The notes beneath the pieces are model-generated. The model was given only the letters and a program-made list of their open reading frames with translations, did not search any database and was not told the DNA's origin. Positions 605-62,311 of a DNA stretch of 64,000 nucleotides are shown piece after piece. The stretch lies in contig JAKJBW010000006.1 in NCBI GenBank assembly GCA_022706785.1, positions 11,306 through 75,305 of the forward strand, written 5' to 3'. The first letter of the stretch is position 1; every line of letters starts with the position of its first letter. This DNA comes from Bacillota bacterium. GTDB taxonomy: Bacteria; Bacillota; Clostridia; UBA1381; UMGS1253. A program made the position numbers and the translations under genes.

Positions 605-3340
605 TTACTGTTGCTGTATGCTCCCGACTGTATTGAAGGGTAATACCGGCAGTCCCGCAGAGCTAAACAGGCTCACCTGAGGATAGTTATACCAGGCATA
701 TCTGGCGCCATATACCGCTTCAAGAGAATCTGACCATACGGTAACCGTGTTGTCATCATTGATTTCTGCCTGGGCCGGCAACCATGTACCGTCGGCACCC
801 AGCACCTCAAAACCGGCCGCCGGACCGTCCTTAAAGCAAAGCGTATCGTATACATGATCAAACGCAACCGTGACCTTATTGCCTTGGGTTTCATATCCTT
901 TCATCTGCGGGCTTTCGCACTGCGTATCCTGTCCGTATATCATATTCATGGCAAGCATGGCAAGCCGGTCGCCTATCTGTTTTTTCCTTGTCGGATGAAT
1001 TTGCCCGGGGTCGGGGTCGGACAGGTCCACTGCGCTCACCAGTCCAGTATTGCTTGTGGTGTTTGCTACGCTCATCTGAACCTCGCGTATACACGGCCAG
1101 TTGTCTTGGTCGGTGCCAATGCTGTTTGTACCGTAGCCCGCAAGCTGCACGAGCATTACGGGAAGCGAGGCATCCTTAAATTCTGTGCGCAGACCGCCGA
1201 TATAGCTTCTTAGCAGGGGCTCGTACTGATAGCGCAGATGCGTACTGTTTTCACCCTGATAGTAAATAACGCCCTTTACGGCATACGGCGCGACAGCGTC
1301 CATATACCCGTTCCAAAAACCCGAAACCACGGGGATATCATCGGCCGCAACGCGTCCGATGCCTGTCACACAATCCGGCATAAATGCTTCAATCGTAGTG
1401 CCGCCGTAAGACAGGCGTATAAGACCTATAGTAACGCCACTCAGATCGTGGTTGGCCTCAAGCAGCTTTTGGGCAAAAAATGTGCCTATGGCGGGTGAGT
1501 TCGCCAACACATAGTCGTGGGTATTCATCCACTTTCCGGGACTGTCGAACTGGGGTGTGACGGCCATGGCCTTTTCGCCCCAGTAAAAGCGCAGGGCAGG
1601 TTTTCCCGTCAGCTTCTTTTTGGTTTCAGCCCCCTGATCACAATCGGATAAGAACATTTCGCAGTTGGACTGCCCCGCAACAAGGAACACTTCCCCCATT
1701 TGAAGGTTTTTGAGCACCACCTTTTTAAAGCTGCTGCTCACGGTCATATCGTAAGGACCGCCCTTAGGCTCGGGCGCAAGCTCTGCATACCAGCGTCCGT
1801 CTTTTACCATCGCTGTGATGGTCTGCTCTTTAAATTTAACGGTTATGGTATCCCCGCACACGCCTCTGCCCCACACAGGTATTTTTTTATCCCTTTGCAG
1901 AACCGCACCCGATGACAGTACCGATGGCAGCTCCAGATCACAGTTGATTTGTCTTCCGTCCGGATCTGATATTTTGGTGAGTATGGACGCGCACTCAGCC
2001 CGGCTCACCGCAGTATTGCCTGAGAAATTAAAAGCATCATCCAGACCCAGATAGCCTTGGTAAAAAGCGTACAGCACGGCCTGGCGGTATTCGTCGGGCA
2101 CATCATCAAAGTCCTTGATACAGCGGGCATACTGTATATCAGTGCTTAGACTCCCGTCAAAACGGTTTATCAACAGAGCAATATCGTACTTGGTGGCCGG
2201 CGCGTTTATGTCGGCAAACTCATTTTCCCTGACAAGACCTATCTGCTCAGCATATTTTATACATGCGTCAGCTGAAATATCTTTAGTGGCAAAGGAAGTA
2301 TCGCCCCACATCCGTATCAGCATGGTTATGAGCTGCCGAAGCGTGACTTTGTCATTAGGATGATATTTTCCGTCCGGATAGCAGTAAGCGATCCCCTGAT
2401 TAAGCAGGTAGCGGATATCTCCGTACGAATCACTTGCCTGTATATCGGATGGTGACACCAAAGAATAGCTCTGCAGCTGTTTTTCATACTGTTTAAACAC
2501 GTCGGGCCGGAAAAGCCTGATATTGTCGTAGCATACAACAGACGGCGTGCCCCATGAGGCCAGATCAAGTCCGCCAGCTGAAAAAACGGGGCCTTTGGCG
2601 CTTTCCAGGATTCTGTATACCGATGAGTCGGTATAATCGATTATGGGCTCAAACGTTTTAGCCGGGTTCTGAGGGCTGTCGGCATAAAAGCGTATGCGCA
2701 CATTGCCCTGGTCGGTGTTTTGGATAGCCAGACGGAGCGTGTATGCCGTATTTTCTCTAAGCAGATAGTAGCCTTGAGCCAGCAGCTGTGCTTCTCCAGG
2801 CGCCGCGGTATTGACAATAGCCCACTTGAGCCTGTATACATTCCCTACGGTATTCTCCATAAAATATCTCAGCGCGTAATATTCATGAAAATCTGCATCC
2901 TTTGTCCTTGGAATGATCGAGGCAACAGGACGGTTCTGCGAGCCTTCATTGCCCGTTTTTACAACACGCATGGTGAATTCCATAGCCAGATTTTGTTCAT
3001 GCTCCCATTGGCTGTCGGACAAAACGGCGTACTCCGGAGCGGAAGCGCCGCCCAACTGAAGCGCGCCGGTATCGCTTATGCGGCTTTTGGCAGACTTATT
3101 GTTGATGAGCGTCCACACGGTATTGTCCTGGTGGTCGGTGATCCGGTTGCCTTTAAGCTGTTTATCGTCAAAACTTTCGGTATAGTACGCCTGGCTTCCG
3201 TAAACGTCAGGGATAGGCGAAAATGTGCTTTTGAGTTTGTTGTTTGACGCATATTCAGAAGTGGCCATAATGAGTACGAGTGCCAAACATAAAAGGATAA
3301 TGCCCGTATATTTCCGTTTCATTAAAATACAAACCTCCAA
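605..3340 (-). CDS. Secreted multidomain carbohydrate esterase (sialate O-acetylesterase/SASA-like C-terminal domain, lectin/LamG-like N-terminal region, SLH-like central repeats)
   Basis: 911-aa ORF with an N-terminal signal/TM (GIILLCLALVLIMATSEYA). The C-terminal half carries LVAGQSNCEM and YYQGENS motifs typical of SASA/DUF303 SGNH-type O-acetylesterases. The central segment FDDVPDEYRQAVLYAFYQGYLGLDDAFNFSGNTAVSRAE resembles SLH. Confidence 0.7.
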   Translation of the reverse strand: MEVCILMKRKYTGIILLCLALVLIMATSEYASNNKLKSTFSPIPDVYGSQAYYTESFDDKQLKGNRITDHQDNTVWTLINNKSAKSRISDTGALQLGGASAPEYAVLSDSQWEHEQNLAMEFTMRVVKTGNEGSQNRPVASIIPRTKDADFHEYYALRYFMENTVGNVYRLKWAIVNTAAPGEAQLLAQGYYLLRENTAYTLRLAIQNTDQGNVRIRFYADSPQNPAKTFEPIIDYTDSSVYRILESAKGPVFSAGGLDLASWGTPSVVCYDNIRLFRPDVFKQYEKQLQSYSLVSPSDIQASDSYGDIRYLLNQGIAYCYPDGKYHPNDKVTLRQLITMLIRMWGDTSFATKDISADACIKYAEQIGLVRENEFADINAPATKYDIALLINRFDGSLSTDIQYARCIKDFDDVPDEYRQAVLYAFYQGYLGLDDAFNFSGNTAVSRAECASILTKISDPDGRQINCDLELPSVLSSGAVLQRDKKIPVWGRGVCGDTITVKFKEQTITAMVKDGRWYAELAPEPKGGPYDMTVSSSFKKVVLKNLQMGEVFLVAGQSNCEMFLSDCDQGAETKKKLTGKPALRFYWGEKAMAVTPQFDSPGKWMNTHDYVLANSPAIGTFFAQKLLEANHDLSGVTIGLIRLSYGGTTIEAFMPDCVTGIGRVAADDIPVVSGFWNGYMDAVAPYAVKGVIYYQGENSTHLRYQYEPLLRSYIGGLRTEFKDASLPVMLVQLAGYGTNSIGTDQDNWPCIREVQMSVANTTSNTGLVSAVDLSDPDPGQIHPTRKKQIGDRLAMLAMNMIYGQDTQCESPQMKGYETQGNKVTVAFDHVYDTLCFKDGPAAGFEVLGADGTWLPAQAEINDDNTVTVWSDSLEAVYGARYAWYNYPQVSLFSSAGLPVLPFNTVGSIQQQ

Positions 3341-3765
3341 GTACCATGAGTGTGCCGACTCCGTATGTCGGTATAAAATCTATGCAGAGTCTTTCCGGAT
3401 CCAAAAAATACCCAATCAGGCACCTTATTCTTATTCTACTGCTTCCCATGACAAAAAGCAATACAATATTAAGGGGCAGACTGTAAAAGCCGTAAAAAAG
3501 CATGATCCCGAAACTGAAGTGTATAAGGCGGCAATTCGGGGGTCATGCTTATTTGTTTTATCCGTACAGGCTCAAAGGAAACAGCTTATACGGATTTCAT
3601 TTTGAAATATAGCAATAAAAACGCAGGATTTTTTCCGTCAGGCGAGACGGCAGCTGGCGGGAATACTTGGTGTATTCCCACCGGCGACAACAAAGCATGG
3701 CGGGAAAAAGACAAGCTTTTATCTATATTTTAAATTGAAATCCGTATTACCCTGCTTTACGCATA

Positions 3766-5790
3766 CTAAAAGCGATAGGATGACAGCCGGGAGAGAACAG
3801 CTGCGATTTCACCCCTTGTTGCGGTATCCTTGGGCCGGAAGCCGGACTCATCGCCGCCCATCCAGCCGGCGATGCGAACGGTATAAACCGCGGATTTCGC
3901 CCAATCAGAAATATTGCTGTCATCCACAAAGATGAAACCATTAGGCACTGCATTCGTCTTAACCGCACGAACTAAAATGACGGCAATCTGCTCTCGGGTA
4001 ATCGCGTCATCCGGGCAGAAATTCCCATCGCCGTTACCTGCAATGATCCTGCGTGCCGTTAATGCGGCTATGTAATTTTTCGCCCAATGGTTTTGCGTGT
4101 CGCTGAAAGCGGCGCCCTCCATCGGCAATCCCAGATTAAGGTATTTTGCCATTGCTGCTGCAAATTCAGCGCGGGTCAGTTGTCCTTGCGGCCTGAAAGT
4201 GCCATCCTCATAGCCGCTCATAATGCCCTTACTGAGCACATCGCTTACATAGGGCTCATACCAGTTTGTGCCGGCTGCAGACGCAGACGTCGGTGCGGTT
4301 ATTCCTGCCACTACGCCGGCAACATTGGATGGGCTGGATTCTGCCCCGTCCACATTTTTGGCAATTACCCTGTAGTAATATTGCTGACCCGGCTTTGCTG
4401 ACGTATCGTTAAACGGTTTATATGGTTTGGTACTGTCAAACACATCGGAGGCTATGACAGACCAGGGACCGGTTTTCCTTTTGGCTCTCTCGACAGCGTA
4501 GGTATACCCGCCCACAGAGCCTTTCCAACGTATGGCGTCCGAAGAGGCGATGGGAAGCAGATAGGGTGCGTTGGGCACAGGCATGGGCGGCACGTCCAGA
4601 CCGCGTATTTTATAGGCGTATTCCCGCATGGTTTTCATAATATAAGGCTCGCCTTCAGGCAGCGTGCTGTCAAATCCGGGCCATTGAAATGAATCGCTCC
4701 TGTCCTCAAAATCGTTGACGAAATAATAGCCGCCGGTATCTCTGTGAGACCTCAGGCTCCATATCAGCGCCCCGGTTGTTCCGCTGTTTACAATATCGTC
4801 TAACAGCGGAAGAATTTCAGATTTTCCTACGAAGAATTCGCCTAGGACAAAAGGCTTTTTGCCCTTGCTTTGCTTGCGCAGATCAAAGATATTGTCTACA
4901 TAATGCAGCGTGCAGATATCAATATTCGGGTCATTTAATGAAACCGCTTTGATCTTGCCGTCGTTTTTATACTGACCGTCCATCACAAGGTGGTTGGGGT
5001 CTTCACTTTTAATGTAAGCGGCCATCTCGGACATCCAGTCGTCGGGCGAATAGGCAAGCTCGTTGCCAAGCTCCCAGGCCAGGATCGCCTTGTCGTCTTT
5101 ATATTTCACACCTGTGTATGTATTTGTTCTGTTTAACACATAAGATATGAGGGCTTTAAAGTCCTGCTTGATCTGGGGGTTGGTATAAAAAGCGGTTAAC
5201 GTTTTACCTTGGAAAGCCGCGAACTCATTGATACCGCCATGATGGGGGTAATTGTCGATAAACGGAACGATGACTCTTATGCCATATTTGTTGCACAGCC
5301 TCAGCATCCTGTCAAAATCCTGAAACAAATACTCGCTGTAGTCGCCGGGCGTATTCACATGACTGGCGTTATTGCGGTTGGCAGTGCCGCCTTTGACAGA
5401 GAAGACGTACACCCGCAGCGCCTGCCCACCCATTTGCGCAATGGTGCGGATAGCGTCCTCCTGCTCGTATTCGGTTACGCTGCTCTTGCCGTTGAACACC
5501 CTAGCCGTCAGGGCCGGAACGTTGTATGATATAAACCGGAACTCATTTTCACCGTCCATCAGCGCATCGCCTTTGCGCGTGATGAAATTGGCAAGCGCTT
5601 CAGGCGCCTGCCTGGCGGCTGCGGCGGCCGGCAAGCCACTGTCCTGCCTGCCTAAAACCCCTTTATCTTCGCTTGATACTGCCGAAGAAGCGGCGTTTGC
5701 ATTTTCTGCGGAAGCGGGTGCCGTAATCCCATCAGAAATGGTCAGCAGCAGGCTTATCATGGTTATCATTGCAAAAAAACGCTGTTTCAT
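3766..5790 (-). CDS. Secreted glycoside hydrolase family 5 (mannanase-like) with Fn3-like module and three C-terminal SLH domains
   Basis: ILAWELGNEL (GH5 acid/base NE motif) and FVLGEFF (nucleophile region) are present. The C-terminus has repeated SLH-type segments (FSDTQNHWAKNYIAALTARRIIAG...; FVDDSNISDWAKSAVYTVRIAG...). I moved the start to the internal ATG at 5790 (MKQRFFAMITMISLLLT signal peptide, AGGAGG upstream) because the longer ORF overlaps htpG. Confidence 0.8.
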   Translation of the reverse strand: MKQRFFAMITMISLLLTISDGITAPASAENANAASSAVSSEDKGVLGRQDSGLPAAAAARQAPEALANFITRKGDALMDGENEFRFISYNVPALTARVFNGKSSVTEYEQEDAIRTIAQMGGQALRVYVFSVKGGTANRNNASHVNTPGDYSEYLFQDFDRMLRLCNKYGIRVIVPFIDNYPHHGGINEFAAFQGKTLTAFYTNPQIKQDFKALISYVLNRTNTYTGVKYKDDKAILAWELGNELAYSPDDWMSEMAAYIKSEDPNHLVMDGQYKNDGKIKAVSLNDPNIDICTLHYVDNIFDLRKQSKGKKPFVLGEFFVGKSEILPLLDDIVNSGTTGALIWSLRSHRDTGGYYFVNDFEDRSDSFQWPGFDSTLPEGEPYIMKTMREYAYKIRGLDVPPMPVPNAPYLLPIASSDAIRWKGSVGGYTYAVERAKRKTGPWSVIASDVFDSTKPYKPFNDTSAKPGQQYYYRVIAKNVDGAESSPSNVAGVVAGITAPTSASAAGTNWYEPYVSDVLSKGIMSGYEDGTFRPQGQLTRAEFAAAMAKYLNLGLPMEGAAFSDTQNHWAKNYIAALTARRIIAGNGDGNFCPDDAITREQIAVILVRAVKTNAVPNGFIFVDDSNISDWAKSAVYTVRIAGWMGGDESGFRPKDTATRGEIAAVLSRLSSYRF

Positions 5791-5881
5791 TTTAGCCAGT
5801 TCCTCCTGTATCGTACAAAAGATTTTACGTTTTATGATAGGACTCTGATGCCGCTTAAAGCGCCTGCGCCGGCGGGCGCGT

Positions 5882-7756
5882 TTACCGCATGATTTTACAG
5901 ATGTTGTTTGTGAATGCCATGGGGTCTTCAACAGGCAATCCGCAAATCAGCAGTGCCTGGCTGTATAAAAGCTCGCTGTAAAGCCTCAGCTTGTCCTTAT
6001 CCTTTTCAAAGGCATCCTTTAAAGCGGCAAACACCGCATGGTTTACATTTATTTCAAGCACCTTTTCCGCTTTGATATCGGGGCTGTCGGGCATGGATTT
6101 TAGCACCTTTTCCATTTCAATGGTAAGCTCGCCCTCGTTTGTGAGGCATACAGGATAATTTTTCAGCCTTTTGGAAGAGCGCACATCCTTCACTTTTTCC
6201 GCAAGCATTTCTTTAATACTGTCGAATAAAGCGCGGTTATCCTCATTGTTGGCATCTGCGGTGTTTTGCTCTTCATCTAATTCAAAATCACCGCCGGACA
6301 CCGATTTAAATGCTTTGTCGTGATAGGCTACCATCATTTTGACCGCAAATTCATCCACATCGTCCGTGAAATATAACACCTCATAGCCTTTGTCCGACAC
6401 AAGCTCAAGCTGCGGCAATTTTTCGATCCGCTCAATGGACTCGCCCGAAGCGTAATAGATATGCTTTTGATCTTCAGGCATTCCTGACACATATTCCTGC
6501 AGGGTAACCAGCTTTTTTTCCTTTGAGGAATAGAACATCAGAAGATCGGCAAGCATTTCCTTATTGCTGCCGAAATCACTGTAAATGCCGTATTTGAGCT
6601 GCCTTCCGAAAGCGTTGAAGAACAGCGCATACTTTTCCCGGTCATTTTTAAGCAGGGATTCCAGCTCGCCTTTGATTTTTGTTTTAATATTTTTGGCAAT
6701 AAACTGCAACTGCCTGTCGTGCTGAAGCATTTCTCTGGAAATATTGAGCGATAAATCCTGTGAATCCACAATGCCCCGAACAAACGCGAAATAGTCGGGC
6801 ACGAGGTCGGCACACCGGTTCATGATCAGCACGCCGTTTGCGTAAAGCTCAAGCCCTTTTTCGTATTCCTTGGTGTAAAAATCATAGGGCGCCCGCTCCG
6901 GAATAAATAAAATAGCATTGTAGCTGACAACCCCGTCGACGCTGGTATGGATATATTTAAGCGGCTTATCGAAGCCGTAGTGGCGTTCGAAATAAAAATT
7001 TTCATAATCCGCGTCCGAAAGCTCAGCCTTATTCTTTTTCCATATCGGCACCATACTGTTTACGGTCTGCTCTTCGGTGACGTCTTCATATTCGTCCTTG
7101 CTGCCTTCCTTGAGCCTGTGCTGCGTGATATCCATCTTTATGGGGTATCTGATGAAATCGGAATATTTTTTAATAAAGGATCTGAGTTTGTATTCTTCAA
7201 GATACTGCCCATAATCCTCGTCGTCAGTATTCGCCTTTATAGAGAGGATGACATCGGTGCCCACACCTTCCTTCTCACACGGCTGTATGGTATAGCCGTC
7301 GGCCCCTGTGGATTTCCACTCATAGCCCTGCTCGCTGCCCAGCGCCTTTGTTATCACTGTCACCGTATCCGCTACCATAAACGCGGAATAAAACCCCACG
7401 CCGAACTGGCCGATGATATCGTAGTCGTCATGCGGGTCATTTTGTTTTTTAAAGTTTAACGAACCGCTTTTGGCGATAACGCCGAGGTTATCGTCTAACT
7501 CCTCTTTTGTCATACCAATACCGGTATCGGATATTTTAAGCGTTCTGTTATGTTTGTCGGCTGCTATCTTGATATAATAATTATCGCGGTCAAACGTAAG
7601 CGATTCATCGGTCAGCGCCTTATAATAGATTTTGTCTATGGCGTCGCTTGCGTTTGAAATGAGCTCACGAAGAAAAATCTCCTTATGTGTGTAGATGGAA
7701 TTTACCATAAGGTCAAGGAGCCTTTTGGATTCTGCTTTAAATTGTTTTTTTGCCAA
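5882..7756 (-). CDS. htpG: Molecular chaperone HtpG (Hsp90)
   Basis: 624 aa with the hallmark N-terminal [12 protein letters not shown] and [19 protein letters not shown] ATPase motifs. The length is full for HtpG. Confidence 0.95.
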
Positions 7757-24241: not shown

Positions 24242-26305
24242 ATGAAGCGTCCTGATATATACAAACATCAAACCCGGATCACCGTTTGGATACTCACCAT
24301 AAGCTTTATTTTAGCAGGCAACTTTTTCATCTTATTTCATCTGTCCAAGGAACATTACATCTATTTTTGGGATATCTCAGGCTATTGGATTTCGGGCATT
24401 GAGTTTGCAAAGGTATTATTTTCGTCGCCTTTAGAAGCCTTGGGCAAGCTCTACCACAGTATACTGGAATCAGATTATAACCTGCTCCCTGCCGTTTTGC
24501 TTTCAACAGTGGTGAAAGTGGTTTCGGCAAGTCATAGGGTGTATACGCTTGCCGTATACAATCTGTATGTTGTGCCGTTTGTCTGTATATTGTTGATTTT
24601 TTACCGTAAAATTCTGTTGGACAATCATGTGTATTCCGCCGTGAAAATGTTGTTCGGGTGTATTTTTCTGCTGCTTTATACCGCATTGCTTACGCCGGTG
24701 CTTTTTGGATATTTGGACGCGGTAGGTTTAGGTGTTATTGCTGCCATTTTGATACTGGTTTACCGAAGCGGCTTTAAAACATTTAAAAGTTCAGACGCTT
24801 TACTCATCACGTTTTTGCTTGTGCTGCTCACGCTGCTCAGACGTTGGTACCTGTTTTGGGTGGTAGGCTTTTTTGTTGCTGTCGGTGTGGTGTATTTGAT
24901 TAAAATGATTTTAGAAAAGGACTACGCACCTGGACAGATATTGCGCAAAGCTTTCATGTTTTTATCCATAGGCGCTGGATATCTGCTGATACTGTCAGTA
25001 TTTTTCACCAGGTTTTTGATAAGAGCGCTGAAAAATAATTTTCAGGATGCTTATAAAGCATATAATGGGGGAGACCTGGTCTATAACATTACGCACCTTT
25101 TCGGGTTTTTCAGCATCATAGTCATGCTTTTTGTTTTAGCGGGCGCTATCGCTTTGCTGATGCGCAAAAAAAGCAGGGACTTTGGCATATTTCTTGTCGT
25201 GCAAGCATTTGTGGTTTTCTTTTTGTTCACAAGAGTACAGAGCTTTGGCTCGCAGCATGTCTATCTCTTTGTGCCGTCTTTTGCCATACTTGCCTTCTGC
25301 GGCATATGCTTTACGTTAGACTGCATTAAACGGTCCTTGCCGAGGGCTTTGGGCTATGTTCTCGCAGCGGCCTTGCTGTTTGTTAATTTCTACTATGTCT
25401 ATATCGGTGACAATAAGGTCACCGATGCCCTCAAGCCGGTTTTATCACAGGAAACACTCAGACCGAGAGTGATGAATGATATTGACGAAATCAGGGATAT
25501 GGCCGGCTATCTCACATCTTTGACACAGGATTCCGGCAAGACAGTCTATGTCCTTGCAAGCTCGTTTGTTATAAACGATGAGATATTGGGTAATTCAAAA
25601 TTGCCATATGAAAGATATGCGGTGATCGGGCTTCTTGCGACCAACCATGTGGACAGGCGTGACGGATTCCCTAATCATTTCCTTCTGGCGGATTATATCG
25701 TGGTGGCCGATCCCGTTCAGTATCATCTAAAGCAGTCCGAGCAGCAGGTTGTGGGGGCGATTGCACAGGAGCTTGTGCATAACACGCCCGATAACCTGAC
25801 CTTGTTAAAAACTTACGCCTTAGACAAGGGTGTTACCGCTAAGGTTTATCAGAGAACAGGGCCTTATGCGCTTCAGTTTTTGGATGCTTTAAGCACGATA
25901 TTTTATACAAGCTATCCCGATTACCCCAGCCTGAACACCATCAGCCGCTTTTATGGCCGGCTCAAAGATATCCGTACAACCGATGCGGAGGGCATGGTAA
26001 GCTATACCGGGCAAAGCGATATTGTTATGCAAGTGGGCAAGACCGGTCATACCGCTTTTACCCTAGATAACCAAAAGCTTTTTAAAAGGCTTAAATTTAA
26101 GGCATGCACCGGCACAGCCGCGCCATATAGCGCAGGGGTCGGCCTGAGAATATATGACGGGGACAATCTGCTCTGCGACGATGTTATTCTTTCGGAGCAC
26201 GACTATGATATTGATATTTCGGACAAAGACAGCTTAAGGTTTATTATTTACGGAAATGATAGTGGAATCGCTAAGATAATTCTTAAAGACATACAGATGG
26301 AGTAA
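24242..26305 (+). CDS. Polytopic membrane protein with C-terminal extracytoplasmic domain (GT-C-like glycosyltransferase candidate)
   Basis: 687 aa with about 11-13 TM segments in the first ~390 aa, then a ~290-aa soluble domain. The architecture resembles ArnT/PMT/YfhO-type GT-C enzymes, but I recognise no diagnostic motif. Confidence 0.45.
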   Translation: MKRPDIYKHQTRITVWILTISFILAGNFFILFHLSKEHYIYFWDISGYWISGIEFAKVLFSSPLEALGKLYHSILESDYNLLPAVLLSTVVKVVSASHRVYTLAVYNLYVVPFVCILLIFYRKILLDNHVYSAVKMLFGCIFLLLYTALLTPVLFGYLDAVGLGVIAAILILVYRSGFKTFKSSDALLITFLLVLLTLLRRWYLFWVVGFFVAVGVVYLIKMILEKDYAPGQILRKAFMFLSIGAGYLLILSVFFTRFLIRALKNNFQDAYKAYNGGDLVYNITHLFGFFSIIVMLFVLAGAIALLMRKKSRDFGIFLVVQAFVVFFLFTRVQSFGSQHVYLFVPSFAILAFCGICFTLDCIKRSLPRALGYVLAAALLFVNFYYVYIGDNKVTDALKPVLSQETLRPRVMNDIDEIRDMAGYLTSLTQDSGKTVYVLASSFVINDEILGNSKLPYERYAVIGLLATNHVDRRDGFPNHFLLADYIVVADPVQYHLKQSEQQVVGAIAQELVHNTPDNLTLLKTYALDKGVTAKVYQRTGPYALQFLDALSTIFYTSYPDYPSLNTISRFYGRLKDIRTTDAEGMVSYTGQSDIVMQVGKTGHTAFTLDNQKLFKRLKFKACTGTAAPYSAGVGLRIYDGDNLLCDDVILSEHDYDIDISDKDSLRFIIYGNDSGIAKIILKDIQME

Positions 26306-26337
26306 TATTTGCAGGGAGTTGATTGCGGCCCTGGGAT

Positions 26338-26495
26338 ATTGCTCCTCCGCTTAAATATTGCCGAAAAATCAGAGAGGAATTTCGCCGGCAGGAAAGGCGG
26401 AAGGCGCAGCTTTGCTGGCGCAAAGCAAGGATGACAACAGGGCATGACGGCGAAATAACCGTTTAGATGAGGAAATATTTAATTGGGGGAGCAAT
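26338..26495 (+). repeat. 158-nt structured intergenic element, copy A
   Basis: Colinear with 62108..62265 with no gaps (134/158 identical by manual count). A 22-nt 5' arm ATTGCTCCTCCGCTTAAATATT pairs with the 3' arm AATATTTAATTGGGGGAGCAAT. Internal hairpins include GCTTTGC-TGGC-GCAAAGC. Confidence 0.7.
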
Positions 26496-26558
26496 AAAAA
26501 CAGCATGCAAAAACAGAGGTGGATTAAGGCATGCAACGTTTGAAGGGGGAGTTTTGCC

Positions 26559-27836
26559 ATGAAAAGACTGGGGAGTCTGTCAGGCGGCCTTTTCGGCAGC
26601 CGGCTTTTAACGCGTGACCAGAAAAATCTTTTGTACGCAATGACGCTATTCTTTATTGCAACAGGCATTTCAAGCGTTTTTGTCAATACTTTTTTGTACG
26701 TTGCCGGTTCGGATGCAGACAGTACGCATACATTGTCCGGAATCACGCTGGTTGTGGTGTACAATCTTTTCTTCTTTGCTTCGGCATGTGTATTTTCAGG
26801 TGTGAGCGGCATGCTGGTAAGGATAGTTCCGGGCTTGCGGATGTGCGCGGGTTTGATTTTGAATGCAGCGCTCTACTTCCTTTTGCTGCTTTATCGTGAG
26901 GAGGTCTTGTCCGTCACATGGCTGTTGGGTATTTTAGGCGGGGCAGGGATAGCCTGTTATAATATAGCCTATAATGCTGCTGTAAATGATTTGACAGATG
27001 GGCGGGGGCGCGACTGTTATGTTGGCTTTCAGTATATTGTTACAGCGGTTTTGGGACTTGTTGCGCCACTAGGGGCGGGTTTGGTATTGGGAACGACAGA
27101 CGGCGTGCGTGGTTACCAGTCTATTTTCACCGTATCGCTTCTGCTATTTATTGCAGCCACAGTGATGGCCGCAAAGCTGCCGCGCTCTGCAAGGATGAGG
27201 AACAAACGCGGTTTTGTCCGTATACTTGCAAGGTCGGTTTCAAACAGCGCTTTTGCCAGCGCAGCAGTTGCTGAAATGCTTCACGGTATGCACAGCGGTG
27301 TGGTGACATTCTTAGCGCCCGTACTTTTGATGACCATAGGCGCGCCTATTCAGATGATAGGCGTATATGTGCTGGTCTGTGCGGCGCTTGGGCTTGCGGG
27401 AGGATTTGTGATACGTCATGTGCTGAGCGCGGCCAAGGATTTTCGCCGCCTTATGCTTGCCGCAGTTACTGCGGCCGTTTCACCGCTTTTCCTGCTGGCA
27501 GGTATAAATTCAATGTCCATATTTGCGGTAGGCATACTTACGTCCGCTACTTTTGCTTTTTTCATAGAACCATCCTGTATGATTTATCATCGTGTGGTGG
27601 GCGCACTGTCCGACGGCCCGAGGCGGGCGGCGGACGGAAACGCTGTGCGCGATTTTTATTTAAACCTTGGCAGAATGGCGGGAGCGGCCGTACTTTTGAT
27701 CGTTTCCAAAGAAATGATGCATATCGTATATGCGTTGATAGCACTGGGGATATTGCAGCTTGCGGCGCCGGTTCTTTACGGATATGCGGACAAAAAAGCT
27801 TTGCGTATTGTGGCGCAAAAGCAGCAAGCGGTCTAA
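26559..27836 (+). CDS. MFS-type transporter (paralog of 22877..24136)
   Basis: 425 aa with about 12 hydrophobic segments, GGGGGAG RBS, and the shared N-terminal motif noted for the first copy. Confidence 0.65.
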   Translation: MKRLGSLSGGLFGSRLLTRDQKNLLYAMTLFFIATGISSVFVNTFLYVAGSDADSTHTLSGITLVVVYNLFFFASACVFSGVSGMLVRIVPGLRMCAGLILNAALYFLLLLYREEVLSVTWLLGILGGAGIACYNIAYNAAVNDLTDGRGRDCYVGFQYIVTAVLGLVAPLGAGLVLGTTDGVRGYQSIFTVSLLLFIAATVMAAKLPRSARMRNKRGFVRILARSVSNSAFASAAVAEMLHGMHSGVVTFLAPVLLMTIGAPIQMIGVYVLVCAALGLAGGFVIRHVLSAAKDFRRLMLAAVTAAVSPLFLLAGINSMSIFAVGILTSATFAFFIEPSCMIYHRVVGALSDGPRRAADGNAVRDFYLNLGRMAGAAVLLIVSKEMMHIVYALIALGILQLAAPVLYGYADKKALRIVAQKQQAV

Positions 27837-34126: not shown

Positions 34127-35143
34127 ATGGCAAAAAAATCAGACAGCGCGGGCCTTGGCAATCTTAAGGCCCAGCTTAAAAGCGGGACGCTGCGTCAGAT
34201 ATATTTGTTTTTTGGCGAGGAGGACTATTTAAAAGAATATTATTTTGGCGAGCTGAAAAAGAAGGTGCTTGCAGACGGGCCGTCCGAGTTCAATTTTGTC
34301 CTGTTTGAGGGCGGAAAGATTATGTGGGAGCAGGTGGACGAGGCACTTGCCGCGCCGCCGCTGATGGCCGACAAAAAGCTTTTGCTTATTCGTGAGTCCG
34401 GCATTTTCAAGACGGCAGATGTTTCCGCAAGGGCGTACTGGGAGCGGTGTCTTGCTGATTTACCGGAATATGTGTGCGTTGTGTTTTACGAAAAAGAGGT
34501 TGACAAGCGCGGCGCCCTTTACAAGACGGTGGCGCAAAATGGGGAGGCTGTGGAGTGCGCTTACGTGGAAGGCGTAGAGCTGTACAATTGGGTGTTGCGC
34601 GGATGCCGCAGTGCCGGACTGCAAATCGACCGCGGCGCCGCCGAATATCTGATAGCTGCCTGCGACGGTGGCATGAACAATTTAAAGCAGGAGCTGGGGA
34701 AGCTTTTCAGCTATTGTTCAGGCAGCATTACAAGGGCGGATATTGACAGAGTCGTGACAAAAATGCCGCAGGCGCGTGTGTTTGAAATGATAAACGCCAT
34801 CATGAAGAAGGACGGACATACGGTATTTTTACGGCTGGGTGAGCTTAAAACGCTTAAAGAATCGCCGTTTATGGTGCTTTCCCTTTTGTGTGGAAGCTTT
34901 TCTCGAATCCTTCACGCAAAGCTCTTGTGCGAGGAGGGTTCGCCTCATGCGCAGGTTGCCTCAGCCCTTGGCATACCGCCGTTTTTTGTAAAAGATTACA
35001 CCGCCGCCGCCCACTGCTTCGATAAAGCATTTTTAAGGCGGGCTGTCTGTGCGTGTGCCGAGATAGACTTTGCGGTCAAACAGGGTAAGGTCGAAGCGTG
35101 GCTGGCTGTGGAACAGTTCTTGGCCGAATGCGTGTCCGTGTAG
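34127..35143 (+). CDS. holA: DNA polymerase III delta subunit
   Basis: 338 aa with N-terminal IYLFFGEEDYLKEYY typical of HolA, in the conserved comEC-holA order. Confidence 0.85.
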   Translation: MAKKSDSAGLGNLKAQLKSGTLRQIYLFFGEEDYLKEYYFGELKKKVLADGPSEFNFVLFEGGKIMWEQVDEALAAPPLMADKKLLLIRESGIFKTADVSARAYWERCLADLPEYVCVVFYEKEVDKRGALYKTVAQNGEAVECAYVEGVELYNWVLRGCRSAGLQIDRGAAEYLIAACDGGMNNLKQELGKLFSYCSGSITRADIDRVVTKMPQARVFEMINAIMKKDGHTVFLRLGELKTLKESPFMVLSLLCGSFSRILHAKLLCEEGSPHAQVASALGIPPFFVKDYTAAAHCFDKAFLRRAVCACAEIDFAVKQGKVEAWLAVEQFLAECVSV

Positions 35144-35149
35144 GAATAC

Positions 35150-35176
35150 AGGCCGTTTTGCTTTCGCAAACGGCCT
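35150..35176. terminator. Hairpin after holA
   Basis: AGGCCGTTT-9 nt-AAACGGCCT. The U-tract is weak on both strands. Confidence 0.4.
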
Positions 35177-35235
35177 TATACGATTTCACGCCCAAAACAG
35201 GACTATCCGCCGCGCCTTTTTTTGCCCACAGCTTT

Positions 35236-35278
35236 GCTGTCGTCCTTGCCTTGCGCCGGCAAAACTGCGTCTTTCGCT
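35236..35278 (-). repeat. Diverged, inverted core copy (copy C) of the structured element
   Basis: The reverse complement reads gcgaaagacgcagttttgccggcgcaaggcaaggacgaca, against copy A gcggaaggcgcagctttgctggcgcaaagcaaggatgaca. The central hairpin is kept with G-U substitutions. The flanks (about 35190-35335) are only weakly similar. Confidence 0.5.
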
Positions 35279-35387
35279 ACGCTGTGCACAAAAAAATCCA
35301 ACGACATTCTATCCTTATTTTAAACGCGAAATAGTATTATTATCATATATACAAAGCCGTAAATCACTTCCTGTCCGCGGATGCAAT

Positions 35388-35434
35388 AAACTTAAAAGGA
35401 ATAAGACCGGCGTGGTCTTATTCCTTTTAAGTTT
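35388..35434. terminator. Perfect 21-bp hairpin downstream of aroF
   Basis: AAACTTAAAAGGAATAAGACC-ggcgt-GGTCTTATTCCTTTTAAGTTT, 30 nt after the aroF stop on the minus strand. Confidence 0.6.
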
Positions 35435-35463
35435 ATTCTATTACAGCGTTACGCTATAGAATT

Positions 35464-36477
35464 TTATGCCATGCGCTTGCCCTCGGCTGCGACGCGCTTT
35501 TTGATGCTTGCCATGGTGCTTGAAAACTGGTCGAAATTCAACGACTGTGCGCCGTCGCACAACGCGCAGGCCGGATTGTTGTGTACCTCTATCATCACGC
35601 CGTCTGCGCCTATGGCAATGGCAGCACGCGAAAGCGGCTCTACCAGCCACGGAACACCGGTGGCGTGACTGGGGTCGAAAATAACGGGCAGATGCGAGTT
35701 GTGCTTAATCAGGGCAATGGCAGTCAGATCGGGCGTATTTCTTATGGCGGTTTCAAAGGTGCGTATCCCGCGTTCGCAAAGGATGACATTGGGGTTACCG
35801 CCCGCAAGGATATACTCTGCGCTCATCAAAAATTCTTCGACGGTGCTTGAAAGGCCGCGCTTTAGAAGCACGGGCTTTTTGCTGTGCCCCAGCTCCTTTA
35901 AAAGCTGGAAGTTCTGCATGTTGCGGGCGCCCACCTGAATGACGTCAACATCCGCAAAAAGATCGATATGCATCTCACTCATGATTTCGGTAACGATGGG
36001 CAGGCCGGTTGCGGCCTTTGCTTCTAAAAGAAAGCGCAAACCGTTTGCTTCAAGGCCCTGAAACGAATATGGGCTGGTACGCGGTTTAAACGCACCGCCA
36101 CGCAGCAGCTGCGCGCCGCTCTTTTTAATCTCTTCTGCGACACATATGATCTGTTCTTCGCTTTCAACCGAGCAGGGGCCTGCAATGACGCAAAAATTTC
36201 CCTCTCCTATGTTATGACCGCCTACCGGGATGTGCGTGTCCTGGGGGTGAAAACGCCGGTTAACCGCCTTGTAGGGTTCAGAAATACGCTTCACCGCTGC
36301 GACGATATCATTGGCGCACACAGCGTCCATATCCACCTGCGAGGTATCGCCCACCAGCCCCATAATGGTGGTATGCGTTCCTTCGCTGTAGTGAATGGTC
36401 AGCCCCATTTGCTCAAATGACTTAGCAAGACTGTCCACCTTTTGCTTACTGACATTTTCTTTTAAGATGACTATCAT
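35464..36477 (-). CDS. aroF: 3-deoxy-7-phosphoheptulonate (DAHP) synthase, type I-beta with N-terminal ferredoxin-like regulatory domain
   Basis: 337 aa. The N-terminal MIVILKENVSKQKVDSLAKSFEQMGLTIHYSEG regulatory domain resembles Thermotoga-type DAHPS. The catalytic core has LLRGGAFKPRTSPYSFQG and FDPSHATG. Confidence 0.9.
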   Translation of the reverse strand: MIVILKENVSKQKVDSLAKSFEQMGLTIHYSEGTHTTIMGLVGDTSQVDMDAVCANDIVAAVKRISEPYKAVNRRFHPQDTHIPVGGHNIGEGNFCVIAGPCSVESEEQIICVAEEIKKSGAQLLRGGAFKPRTSPYSFQGLEANGLRFLLEAKAATGLPIVTEIMSEMHIDLFADVDVIQVGARNMQNFQLLKELGHSKKPVLLKRGLSSTVEEFLMSAEYILAGGNPNVILCERGIRTFETAIRNTPDLTAIALIKHNSHLPVIFDPSHATGVPWLVEPLSRAAIAIGADGVMIEVHNNPACALCDGAQSLNFDQFSSTMASIKKRVAAEGKRMA

Positions 36478-36660: not shown

Positions 36661-36737
36661 TGGTAGAGACAGTAGGACTTGAACCTACGACCTCTCGCAT
36701 GTGAAGCGAGCGCTCTAACCAACTGAGCCATGCCTCC
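36661..36737 (-). tRNA. tRNA-Val (anticodon CAC), CCA encoded
   Basis: Reverse strand: GGAGGCA TG GCTC AGTTGGTTA GAGC G CTCGC TTCACAT GCGAG AGGTC GTAGG TTCAAGT CCTAC TGTCTCT A CCA. The cloverleaf is canonical. The acceptor stem contains G1-U72 and G5-U68 wobbles. Confidence 0.9.
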
Positions 36738-58691: not shown

Positions 58692-58996
58692 GGTTGTACC
58701 CGGCACTGACGGTGAGGTAATCGCTTATGGAAAAGGTGTTTTTCGATATTTCGGTTGCGGTGCGGCGCCGGTTGTGATAAAATGAAAAACAATCCGGAAT
58801 ATGTGATACTGTTCCCAAATAAAATCATAGGCTAAAACTTGTCTTTTTTCCGTCTGACTGCGTCAAAGAACCATCGGCAATAAACAAATTATTGCCGAGA
58901 ACTTTTTTCTTGTCATATAAAAAAATCCGGCGTTTTATTTGTCTATTCTTTTATTTAGGAACAGTATAATATATCAGAAAATGTGGGTAAATATAA

Positions 58997-60052
58997 ATGG
59001 ATACTGAATATATCCGGCTTGACGGCCGAAATATTGATATTACGCTTGCGCACAAAGCGGGGGCGACCTTGCGAAACGGCGGAACCGTCGCGTTCCCCAC
59101 AGAAACTGTATATGGCTTGGGCGCAAATGCGCTGGACCCTGATGCGGTGAAGAAAATTTTTGCCGCCAAGGGCAGACCGGCTGATAATCCTTTGATAGTC
59201 CATGTAGCAGACGCTTCAGATGTTGTCCCTTTGGTGAAAGAGATTCCCGAACCGGCAAGGCTGGTGATGGCGAATTTCTGGCCAGGTCCTATCAGCATCA
59301 TTCTTCAAAAGTCCGGCCTTATCCCTGACATCGTAAGCGCAGGGCTGCCCACGGTTGCACTGCGTCAGCCCTCGCATCCGGTTGCGGCGGCGATTATCAG
59401 AGCGTCCGGCGTTCCGGTTGCAGCACCGTCGGCAAACCTTTCCGCAAGGCCGTCGCCAACCTGTGCGCAGCATGTCCGTCAGGATCTGGACGGCAAGATT
59501 GATATGATGGTAGACGGCGGCATATGCAGTGTGGGGCTTGAGTCCACGGTGCTGGATCTTTCGGGTGATGTCCCGGCCATCCTGCGTCCCGGCGGCGTTA
59601 CGCCGCAGATGCTGAGGCCGTTGATCGGCGAAGTGGCGCATTCGCTCGGCAAGACGGATACGGACTGTGCGCCCAAATGTCCGGGTATGAAGTACCGCCA
59701 TTATTCCCCCAAGGCACAGGTCTGCTTGGTGGAATGCGGCAGTGGGAGAGCAGCGTGCGTGGAAAACATTTCCAAAGAAATTGCCCGCCTTTGCGCCGAA
59801 AGCAAGCGAGAGGGAAAACGCGTCGGTGTTTTGACATGCGCAGGAGAAGGCAGCGGGGCGCCTGCCGATATATTTATAGCATGCGGCGAAACGCCGGGCG
59901 AATACGCCGCCAATATGTTTGCCGCCCTGCGCCAGTTTGATGAGCAGCAAGCGGATATTATATACGCTGCCCTGCCCTTTGACGATGAATTTTCCGCCGC
60001 TATCCGAAACAGGCTCTACAAAGCGGCGGGTGGCAGAGTCGTTAAAGTATGA
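58997..60052 (+). CDS. tsaC: L-threonylcarbamoyladenylate synthase (Sua5/YwlC type, with C-terminal Sua5 domain)
   Basis: GGTVAFPTETVYGLGANA, KGRPADNPLIVH, SANLSARPSPT. 351 aa. Confidence 0.9.
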   Translation: MDTEYIRLDGRNIDITLAHKAGATLRNGGTVAFPTETVYGLGANALDPDAVKKIFAAKGRPADNPLIVHVADASDVVPLVKEIPEPARLVMANFWPGPISIILQKSGLIPDIVSAGLPTVALRQPSHPVAAAIIRASGVPVAAPSANLSARPSPTCAQHVRQDLDGKIDMMVDGGICSVGLESTVLDLSGDVPAILRPGGVTPQMLRPLIGEVAHSLGKTDTDCAPKCPGMKYRHYSPKAQVCLVECGSGRAACVENISKEIARLCAESKREGKRVGVLTCAGEGSGAPADIFIACGETPGEYAANMFAALRQFDEQQADIIYAALPFDDEFSAAIRNRLYKAAGGRVVKV

Positions 60053-62044: not shown

Positions 62045-62073
62045 TTGCAATACTTATGCTTTGATGTTATAAT
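62045..62073 (+). promoter_or_regulatory. Near-consensus sigma-A promoter (TTGCAA-17 nt-TGtTATAAT) driving the darA leader
   Basis: TTGCAA tacttatgctttgatgt TATAAT. The predicted start is near 62080, about 28 nt before element copy B and about 232 nt before the darA ATG. Confidence 0.6.
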
Positions 62074-62107
62074 GTAACAAGAACGTAAAGAATCTGTAAA
62101 CTTGATT

Positions 62108-62265
62108 ATTGCTTCCCCGATCAAATATTGCCGAAAAATCAACGAGGGATTTTGCCGGCAGGCAAGGCCGGGGACGCAGCTTTGTTGGCGTAAAGCAAGG
62201 ATGACAACGGGGCATAACGGTAAAATAACCGTTCAGGCGAGGGAATATTTAATTGGAGGAGCAAT
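62108..62265 (+). repeat. 158-nt structured intergenic element, copy B (in the darA 5' leader)
   Basis: See copy A. The terminal arms ATTGCTTCCCCGATCAAATATT and AATATTTAATTGGAGGAGCAAT pair. The central hairpin is GCTTTGT-TGGC-GTAAAGC. Confidence 0.7.
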
Positions 62266-62311
62266 AAATATAAAGCAGGACATTTTAAGCTAACCGGGGA
62301 GGGTTTGCGGT

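Follow-up and report, generated by a model that had tools for sequence, protein, structure and literature searches.

The 64,000-nt stretch of contig JAKJBW010000006.1 analysed here (the window, from a Bacillota bacterium) carries, at positions 26337 to 26496 of its plus strand, a structured intergenic element that probably belongs to a new family of small, non-autonomous mobile repeats of the Oscillospiraceae, resembling miniature inverted-repeat transposable elements (MITEs). The family is previously undescribed and belongs to uncultured Oscillospiraceae; on our best reading, it is analogous to the Correia, RUP, and ERIC repeats, with an interior and arms that appear to be kept as a strand-specific hairpin. 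The element is non-coding and shorter than 300 bp, has terminal inverted repeats, occurs in dispersed copies, and is present or absent at orthologous loci. Reviews give dispersal, TA boundaries, and identical copies in unrelated flanks as defining traits of bacterial MITEs, Correia and RUP among them (PMC2229807). A prediction made from the letters of the window alone had listed a MITE-like repeat among its alternatives, and this is the one that gains from what we describe: five copies on both strands, TA ends, identical elements in unrelated flanks, random orientation, and element-free orthologous leaders. The hairpin, for its part, is maintained along its entire length via compensatory changes, and its fold is favoured on one strand.

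Copies, anatomy, and relatives

The covariance model of the family (R1), run on the window without filters and the source of the copy coordinates and bit scores given here, detects five copies, distributed over both strands of the 64 kb:

3587 to 3748, plus strand: copy A, 72.7 bits (33.6 on the minus strand); apical hairpin GGGAATAC-TTGG-TGTATTCCC, which differs from those of the other copies
26337 to 26496, plus strand: copy B, the element of the original prediction, 160 nt, 136.7 bits (E = 9e-29)
35177 to 35338, minus strand: copy C, full-length and diverged, 105.3 bits (14.1 on the plus strand)
58805 to 58968, minus strand: copy D, the most diverged, 40.2 bits (19.2 on the plus strand); apical hairpin CGGCAATAA-TTTG-TTTATTGCCG
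62107 to 62266, plus strand: copy E, 160 nt, 125.1 bits

Two close copies of about 158 nt and one inverted, diverged core near 35 kb had been predicted. The close pair is as described: 26338 to 26495 and 62108 to 62265 align without gaps at 134/158 identical positions (blastn E = 7e-42). The unit is likewise real but measures 160 nt, since a 5′ T and a 3′ A complete the terminal TA...TA (26337 to 26496 and 62107 to 62266). The inverted core (35235 to 35277, 84% identity over 43 nt) also exists and is the centre of the full-length copy C, and two further copies bring the count from three to five; these, A and D, differ in their apical hairpins but retain TA ends, arms, and the sequences of an inner helix (P2, listed below).

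As a unit, the element consists of a non-coding stretch of about 156 bp with TA on either side, 160 bp in all. Its length is held at about 160 nt (160 to 162) in nearly all members, with 70 nt on the 5′ side and 60 nt on the 3′ side of the core pattern, and TA stands at both ends of nearly all of them, homology ending exactly there. The terminal arms are complementary over 22 to 41 nt in almost every copy, and their sequence differs wholly among subfamilies (TATAGTCAACC..., TATACTGCTTC..., TACTAATTCC..., TAGTACTTCACC..., and TATTGCTCC...). In copies B and E, the closing helix that had been predicted spans about 22 bp. The parts of copy B are as follows:

26337 to 26359, plus strand: terminal TA and 5′ arm (TA-TTGCTCCTCCGCTTAAATATT), which pairs with the 3′ arm to form helix P1
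26378 to 26388, plus strand: 5′ strand of P2 (AATTTCGCCGG), which pairs with GACGGCGAAAT at 26446 to 26456
26393 to 26439, plus strand: conserved apical domain, AAAGGCGGAAGGCG, hairpin P3, and AAGGATGACAACA
26409 to 26426, plus strand: hairpin P3, GCTTTGC-TGGC-GCAAAGC
26474 to 26496, plus strand: 3′ arm and terminal TA (AATATTTAATTGGGGGAGCAA-TA)

Conservation runs from the inside outward: it is lowest in the arms (0.56 to 0.58), reaches 0.72 to 0.92 in the interior, and is 0.81 to 0.92 around the tip; columns 66 to 113 of alignment A2 are 81 to 92% conserved. In the apical domain, GGCGGA(G/C)GACG lies opposite GGA(C/G)GACAAC, so placed that G-C pairs are spaced by tandem G.A/A.G oppositions. 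The element has no coding capacity, the open reading frames (ORFs) over its 160 nt being frame artefacts only; a small ORF beginning ATGACAACAGGGCATGAC... was considered and dropped, as its ATG is missing in most family members.

A second, shorter hairpin, of about 110 nt, carries the apical domain as well (L035:8545-8700 on the minus strand, L056, L010, L053, L048, and L041; L numbers denote loci recovered outside the window). In this second scaffold, GCGGAcGACGCAG-hairpin-GCAAGGAgGACAAG is set within CCTCACAGCG...CGCTGTGAGG. The surroundings in L035 are those of a mobile element: the scaffold lies 200 nt past the gene for a large serine recombinase, with a MobA/MobL relaxase nearby. Upstream of the scaffold, L035 and L048 have about 100 nt of conserved sequence in common. 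The second scaffold of this group has no Rfam, tRNA, or tmRNA match.

A scan of one genome per species with the exact core pattern gave only two real matches, L001 and L002, both in Oscillospiraceae metagenome-assembled genomes (MAGs), and one further match attributable to chance. An Acidobacteriota MAG (L003:6129-6154) carries the 26-nt core pattern in an intergenic position just upstream of nusA; the rest of the element is absent there, and by our own estimate about 0.3 such matches are expected by chance. A second scan, of metagenomes and with a looser pattern in which the hairpin stem could vary, yielded 57 loci, about 38 of them real and 19 chance matches in GC-rich coding DNA; most of the real loci come from what we take, from the JGI sample series, to be termite-gut projects. 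Among these real members, the stem letters covary (CTTT/AAAG, CCTT/AAGG, CAAG/CTTG, GCGG/CCCG, and CTAG/CTAG), and conservation extends over long stretches beyond the search pattern. The covariance model added further copies in L021, L029, L044, and L054.

The original prediction could assign the element to no riboswitch or small RNA (sRNA) family, and the searches agree. At the gathering level, Rfam 15 matches the whole window only at a tRNA and matches none of 12 loci; relaxing the threshold to E ≤ 10 for the window copies, the best family member, and the second scaffold returns nothing meaningful. The core sequences turned up in no paper when the literature was searched. The core pattern has no match in IMG/VR or in plasmid and phage collections, and carriage as phage or plasmid cargo was ruled out on this ground. 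T-arm-like sequences beside some matches are not of tRNA or tmRNA origin according to ARAGORN.

Dispersal, insertion sites, and genomic settings

Matching elements recur in different surroundings. L011 and L029 carry identical elements (160/160); together with L004, whose element is identical or nearly so, they present three different flanks. Identical or near-identical elements also lie in unrelated flanks within each of the sets L015/L034/L040, L014/L050, and L019/L049/L005. Across 34 elements, orientation is random: 15 have the same sense as the downstream gene and 13 the opposite, with the same split (15/13) for the upstream gene. The 88 neighbouring proteins fall into 112 Pfam families, each found in at most two proteins, and are the products of ordinary housekeeping genes.

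Irregular copies occur as well: L008 and L030 are shortened, L021 is 219 nt long, and L001 is a core-only remnant. L002:1786-1944 is a chimera whose 5′ arm (TATAGTTGATTAAC...) belongs to one subfamily and whose 3′ arm (...GGCGGAGCAATA) to another, that of the window; its ends do not pair, and it looks like the outcome of recombination between two copies. Directly after the element in L043 (322-345) stands a second partial arm, GGTTGGGGGAACACTTAG, like its own 3′ arm, which suggests tandem or nested insertion remnants. Finally, two loci of sample Ga0123354 (L007:1226-1392 and L042:6525-6696) have a common flank, CAAAGCCAACA, on the same arm and interiors that are opposite relative to that flank, the TATA end being absent on the common-flank side; this could reflect either an inversion of the interior between inverted arms or an assembly artefact at the repeat.

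The copies in the window have the following neighbours:

605 to 3340 and 3766 to 5931, minus strand: genes on either side of copy A (Pfam SASA/SLH and GH5/SLH, respectively), both antisense to it
24242 to 26305 and 26559 to 27836, plus strand: a 687-aa ORF and an MFS transporter gene (Pfam MFS_1), with copy B between them in the same sense as both
34127 to 35143, plus strand, and 35464 to 36477, minus strand: holA and the DAHP synthase gene, with copy C between their convergent 3′ ends
36664 to 36737, minus strand: tRNA gene
58755 to 58783, plus strand: tsaC promoter-like site, TTGCGG-17-TAAAAT, conserved in L079; a putative promoter by sequence comparison
58997 to 60052, plus strand: tsaC/sua5, with copy D antisense in its 5′ untranslated region, 21 nt downstream of the promoter-like site
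62045 to 62073, plus strand: darA promoter-like site, TTGCAA-17-TATAAT with TG, conserved in L079
62312 to 62641, plus strand: darA, the cyclic-di-AMP receptor gene (Pfam CdAMP_rec, 1e-42), with copy E sense in its 5′ untranslated region, between the promoter and the Shine-Dalgarno sequence

Copies B and E alone share the sense of their neighbours. Because the darA promoter-like site is conserved in L079, copy E would be transcribed within the darA leader. Copy C is placed between the terminator hairpins of its two neighbours: strong hairpins lie at 35150 to 35180 (AGGCCGTTTTGC-TTTC-GCAAACGGCCT, after holA) and at 35385 to 35436 (AAACTTAAAAGGAATAAGACC...GGTCTTATTCCTTTTAAGTTT, after the DAHP synthase gene) and are probably the terminators of these convergent genes. 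The apical hairpin of copy D (58874 to 58898), read on the plus strand as TCGGCAATAA-ACAAA-TTATTGCCGA followed by a T-run, has a terminator-like score on both strands and stands inside the tsaC leader.

Syntenic relatives show some of these sites without the element. In L079, L080, and L081/L082, TsaD is 75 to 77% identical and the order tsaC-LMWPc-rimI-tsaD-darA-holB is kept, and no element occurs anywhere in their 72 kb, including the darA leaders. The darA promoter is kept in all of them and the tsaC promoter in L079. Before darA in L079, the promoter TTGCAA-17-TATAAT and the GTAACAgGAACGTAA that follows it are conserved, with a leader of 75 nt versus 78+160 nt in the window; the element-free tsaC leader of L079 measures 37 nt versus 50+164 nt. 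Both pairs of lengths are compatible with a clean 160-nt insertion, and conserved promoters together with shorter, element-free leaders in L079 indicate that copies D and E are insertions into existing leaders.

At the dGTPase locus occupied in L004, the element is missing from the relatives L084 to L087. Comparison of L004:1895-1935 with L084:845-885 places the element against the −10 region of the dGTPase promoter, L004 reading TTGTCAAG...GTATATA-TAGTT where L084 reads TTGTCAAG...GTATAAT; the insertion seems to have hit a TA within the −10 box, with TATATA remaining in its place. A general habit of inserting into, or re-creating, −10 boxes was rejected, as −35-like hexamers 16 to 18 nt from the ends show no excess (13.6% versus 13.6%).

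These comparisons bear on a cis-regulatory RNA, a riboswitch or leader that would sense a ligand or protein and control darA and the MFS gene, which the original prediction had offered as another alternative. Copies B and E do lie sense-oriented just upstream of genes, the structure is strongly conserved with covariation, and the product of darA, a cyclic-di-AMP receptor, is suggestive of a second-messenger link. However, of the five copies in the window, three run antisense to their neighbours or sit between gene ends, orientation is random over the 34 elements, the neighbouring genes are unrelated, and the orthologous darA leaders of three syntenic relatives keep the promoter and lack the element. 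No expression platform follows the element, and even at E ≤ 10 Rfam has no match. The Shine-Dalgarno-like GGAGG/GGGGGAG of the 3′ arm, which had been read as sequestered by the 5′ arm, is instead part of the terminal inverted repeat of the subfamily of the window (found also in L025, L002, L023, and L036); it lies 46 to 63 nt upstream of start codons whose genes each have a Shine-Dalgarno sequence of their own. We regard cis-regulation as scarcely credible, the tests of orientation, neighbours, and orthologous leaders having essentially refuted it.

A hairpin favoured on one strand

Copies B and E fold with minimum free energies of −58.8 kcal/mol (z = −5.1 versus shuffles) and −53.6 kcal/mol (z = −3.8), respectively. 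Family-wide statistics come from an alignment of 27 full-length elements, for which RNAalifold returns one rod-like hairpin of 47 pairs with compensatory changes in 40. Paired cells make up 90.3% of the total, versus 68% in shuffles (none of 500 reaches the observed value) and 39 to 47% with slid partners. Changes on both sides support all 16 pairs of P1; in support of P2, helix 3 has double changes in 17 of its 18 pairs and 93% of its cells paired; and 3 of the 6 pairs of hairpin P3 have compensatory changes. Within the apical strands, the sole variable pair (columns 74-104) covaries, as G-C in 14 elements, C-G in 10, A-U in 1, and G-U in 1. Three local hairpins had been proposed: the central GCTTTGC-TGGC-GCAAAGC is borne out by family covariation, and the other two are not, CGAAA/TTTCG and GACGG/CCGTT being better explained as strands of a long-range helix (TTTCGCCG with CGGCGAAA).

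The structure-preserving G.U changes noticed on the plus strand of the window copies turn out to be family-wide: counted by cells, G.U and A.C stand at 109:25, and, counted once per 85% cluster, at 81:21 (P = 2e-9). In all 27 elements the sense strand folds more stably than the complement, with means of −71.8 versus −55.5 kcal/mol under RNA parameters and −39.6 versus −31.2 kcal/mol under DNA parameters. Since strand-symmetric mutation or arm-to-arm correction would equalise G.U and A.C, some single-stranded sense form, RNA or single-stranded DNA, is under selection, at least in propagating copies. The original prediction had held that scattered copies with target-site duplications and no covariation would speak for a plain MITE; scattering and flanking TAs are indeed observed, but so is very strong, strand-specific covariation, and to that extent its structural intuition was right.

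Two explanations start from this fold. According to the first, the copies would be sRNA genes in multiple copies, each specifying a trans-acting rod RNA of about 156 nt with a protein-binding apical domain; they would have spread by duplication or by hitch-hiking on transposons, DNA mobility being secondary. The strand-specific fold (G.U:A.C of 81:21, sense more stable in 27/27), a conserved, asymmetric motif of non-Watson-Crick oppositions in which one pair covaries perfectly, an interior more conserved than the arms, the recurrence of the apical domain in the shorter scaffold (L035/L056/L010, L053, L048, and L041), and the position of copy C, alone between two terminators, are all in keeping with this. 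Yet the unit has no conserved promoter or terminator of its own, homology stops at the TA ends, and −35-like hexamers are not in excess upstream of the ends. Among copies in operon-like contexts, about half are antisense to local transcription, and pairing of the very first nucleotide with the last would force a full-length RNA to start outside the element. We therefore judge an sRNA family quite unlikely.

According to the second, the element would be mobilised or recombined as a folded single DNA strand recognised by its structure, as in the REPIN-RAYT/IS200-type HUH systems or integron attC sites. Such recognition would fit arms that retain complementarity and not sequence, a length held at 160 nt, a strand-specific fold that tolerates G.T and is more stable in the sense strand with DNA parameters too (−39.6 versus −31.2 kcal/mol), and the proximity of the apical domain in L035 to a relaxase and a large serine recombinase. 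But no Y1/HUH transposase or integron integrase recurs among the 88 neighbouring proteins, TA...TA ends are foreign to IS200/IS605, REP, and attC elements, and copies D and E lie 3 kb apart on opposite strands. A replication-strand rule of the kind followed by IS200/IS605 or REP was rejected because copies in one GC-skew domain of the window (26 to 62 kb) are oriented + − − +. All told, mobilisation as a folded strand strikes us as very improbable.

Mobilisation, known repeats, and implications

In the MITE-like interpretation that we favour, copies would insert at TA sites in the manner of IS630/Tc1-mariner-type elements, with the transposase supplied in trans. Copies B (before the MFS gene), E (sense, in the darA leader), and D (antisense, in the tsaC leader) would be transcribed within host mRNA, where a rod of −55 to −60 kcal/mol may have incidental effects on how the mRNA is processed or how stable it is, for instance by serving as an RNase III substrate or 3′ stabiliser; such effects are reported for Correia and ERIC. 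The apical domain (G-C pairs, tandem G.A, and a YGGC-loop hairpin) would be selected in its single-stranded sense form, most simply as RNA.

Many copies begin TA-TAGT..., resembling the inverted repeats of the IS630 family. An insertion sequence (IS) of this family was recovered in L083:2422-3357 (Logan SRR25266747): it has TA-flanked inverted repeats (TATAGTGGTTTAAAAAATCATTGATAA) that start TATAGTGG (TATAGT), encodes HTH_Tnp_IS630 and DDE_3 in two ORFs, and is 75% identical to an annotated IS630 on a plasmid of Candidatus Rhabdochlamydia oedothoracis (NZ_CP075588.1). Its TA-flanked repeats with a TATAGT start make IS630-type mobilisation plausible. In L001 (445-894, minus strand), an IS630-like transposase pseudogene, interrupted by an in-frame stop, follows the core-only remnant at a distance of about 190 nt; TTGACA-17-TAGAAT precedes the pseudogene, which stands at the contig end, downstream of a gene for a sortase-anchored surface protein. 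As a candidate partner this ORF was rejected: it is a pseudogene at a contig end with only distant relatives.

Several points weigh against mobilisation as a MITE. The element arms and the inverted repeats of L083 are alike only in TA-TAGT and an A-run; a long-range inverted-repeat search found no autonomous partner with matching arms in the recovered loci, and the window has no IS630-like gene. A TA duplication and a terminal TA are indistinguishable, the relatives compared being 75 to 82% identical at the protein level. The arms are the most variable part (0.56 to 0.58) and covary, and the interior is the most conserved (0.72 to 0.92); a classical MITE has conserved ends, and recognition of inverted repeats by a transposase does not predict covarying arms. 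Cut-and-paste DDE transposition, moreover, has no single-stranded stage that would explain an excess of G.U over A.C. Lastly, the invariance of the 30-nt core among metagenome members is partly caused by the search pattern, a bias that does not touch the conserved P2 and junction sequences or the variable arms.

The covarying arms, the conserved tandem-G.A apical domain, the strand-specific fold, and the constant length leave room for a further reading, tentative and on balance unlikely, in which the element would be more than a passive repeat: a mobile module of structured RNA or of a folded single strand. Its apical domain would serve as a binding platform, and it would be recognised and spread by its shape and length (a fixed 70 nt on one side of the core and 60 nt on the other, up to the TA ends), not by its end sequence. 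If true, structure would guide its mobilisation or processing, a mode not described for TA-flanked repeats of bacteria, and the apical domain, found in a second scaffold near relaxase and recombinase genes, would be a reusable mobile-element part.

Among known systems, the closest in appearance are the Correia elements (CREE/NEMIS), which are non-coding, 104 to 108 or 153 to 157 bp long, and TA-bracketed, with inverted-repeat ends that begin TATAGT; they occur in hundreds of dispersed intergenic copies in either orientation, and their transcripts form hairpins cut by RNase III, the transposase not having been identified (PMC2229807, PMC9778887, PMC5039591). The new family is like Correia in its TATAGT ends, size, dispersal, and hairpin, but its hosts are Firmicutes (Oscillospiraceae) and not Neisseria, and its arms vary between subfamilies around a conserved interior, the reverse of the Correia pattern. 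Inversion of the CREE interior is on record (reference list of PMC9778887), and the opposite interiors of L007 and L042 are a possible parallel.

Descent from a common ancestor, hinted at by the TATAGT ends and by 'CAAGGCG...CGCAG' strings, was tried and rejected: an nhmmer search with the family hidden Markov model matches no real Correia element (18 IMG/VR loci), and this sequence-only model finds no homology in the new family to the 26-bp Correia repeat (TATAGTGGATTAA...). The covariance model gives real Correia elements 20 to 30 bits, which is what the reverse strands of its own members score. Judged by sequence, the two families are alike in kind, not in descent. About 23 of 27 positions agree between the repeats of the L083 element (compare L061 to L078) and the Correia repeat of Neisseria, TATAGTGGATTAACAAAAATCAGGACAA; Correia elements being reported to have no known transposase, this IS630 subgroup offers a lead on the enzyme that mobilises them.

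RUP is a small TA-targeting repeat of a Firmicute with inverted-repeat ends, and its mobilisation by an IS630-family transposase was deduced from inverted-repeat similarity and TA targets (PMC2229807). There, the partner (IS630-Spn1) is known and the inverted repeats match closely, whereas the new family has only the terminal TA-TAGT in common with an IS630-family element. REPINs are dispersed hairpin repeats of about 100 nt that persist in single lineages and preserve their stems through compensatory changes (bioRxiv 10.1101/2021.07.10.451892); they have conserved REP ends of 20 to 25 nt and a linked RAYT gene, in contrast to the variable ends and TA brackets of the new family, and among the 88 proteins neighbouring its copies there is neither a RAYT-like gene product nor any recurrent transposase family. 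ERIC/IRU and YPAL elements (127 to 170 bp) form one long RNA hairpin, lie intergenically in operons, and may affect mRNA stability (PMC2229807). Their sequences and hosts are unrelated to those of the new family, and YPAL has no TA termini. The bcr1 repeats of the Bacillus cereus group, unrelated in the same respects, resemble them in size, hairpin, setting, and possible effect, and are likewise transcribed, whole-length imperfect palindromes; to our knowledge, no description of ERIC/IRU, YPAL, or bcr1 reports a conserved, asymmetric tandem-G.A apical domain.

The analysis removes a tempting false lead, a 'riboswitch' before a cyclic-di-AMP receptor gene, and puts in its place a new family of small, probably mobile repeats from a little-studied, uncultured lineage of gut and termite-gut bacteria. 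For annotation, the covariance model finds members that would otherwise be recurrent candidate structured RNAs. The family also poses the question of why its arms are free to change if only they pair, while the tandem-G.A interior stays constant and one strand folds better than the other. Within the window, the copies in the leaders of tsaC and darA, two essential-pathway genes, lie in opposite orientations downstream of conserved promoters and amount to a natural experiment on the effects of such hairpins.

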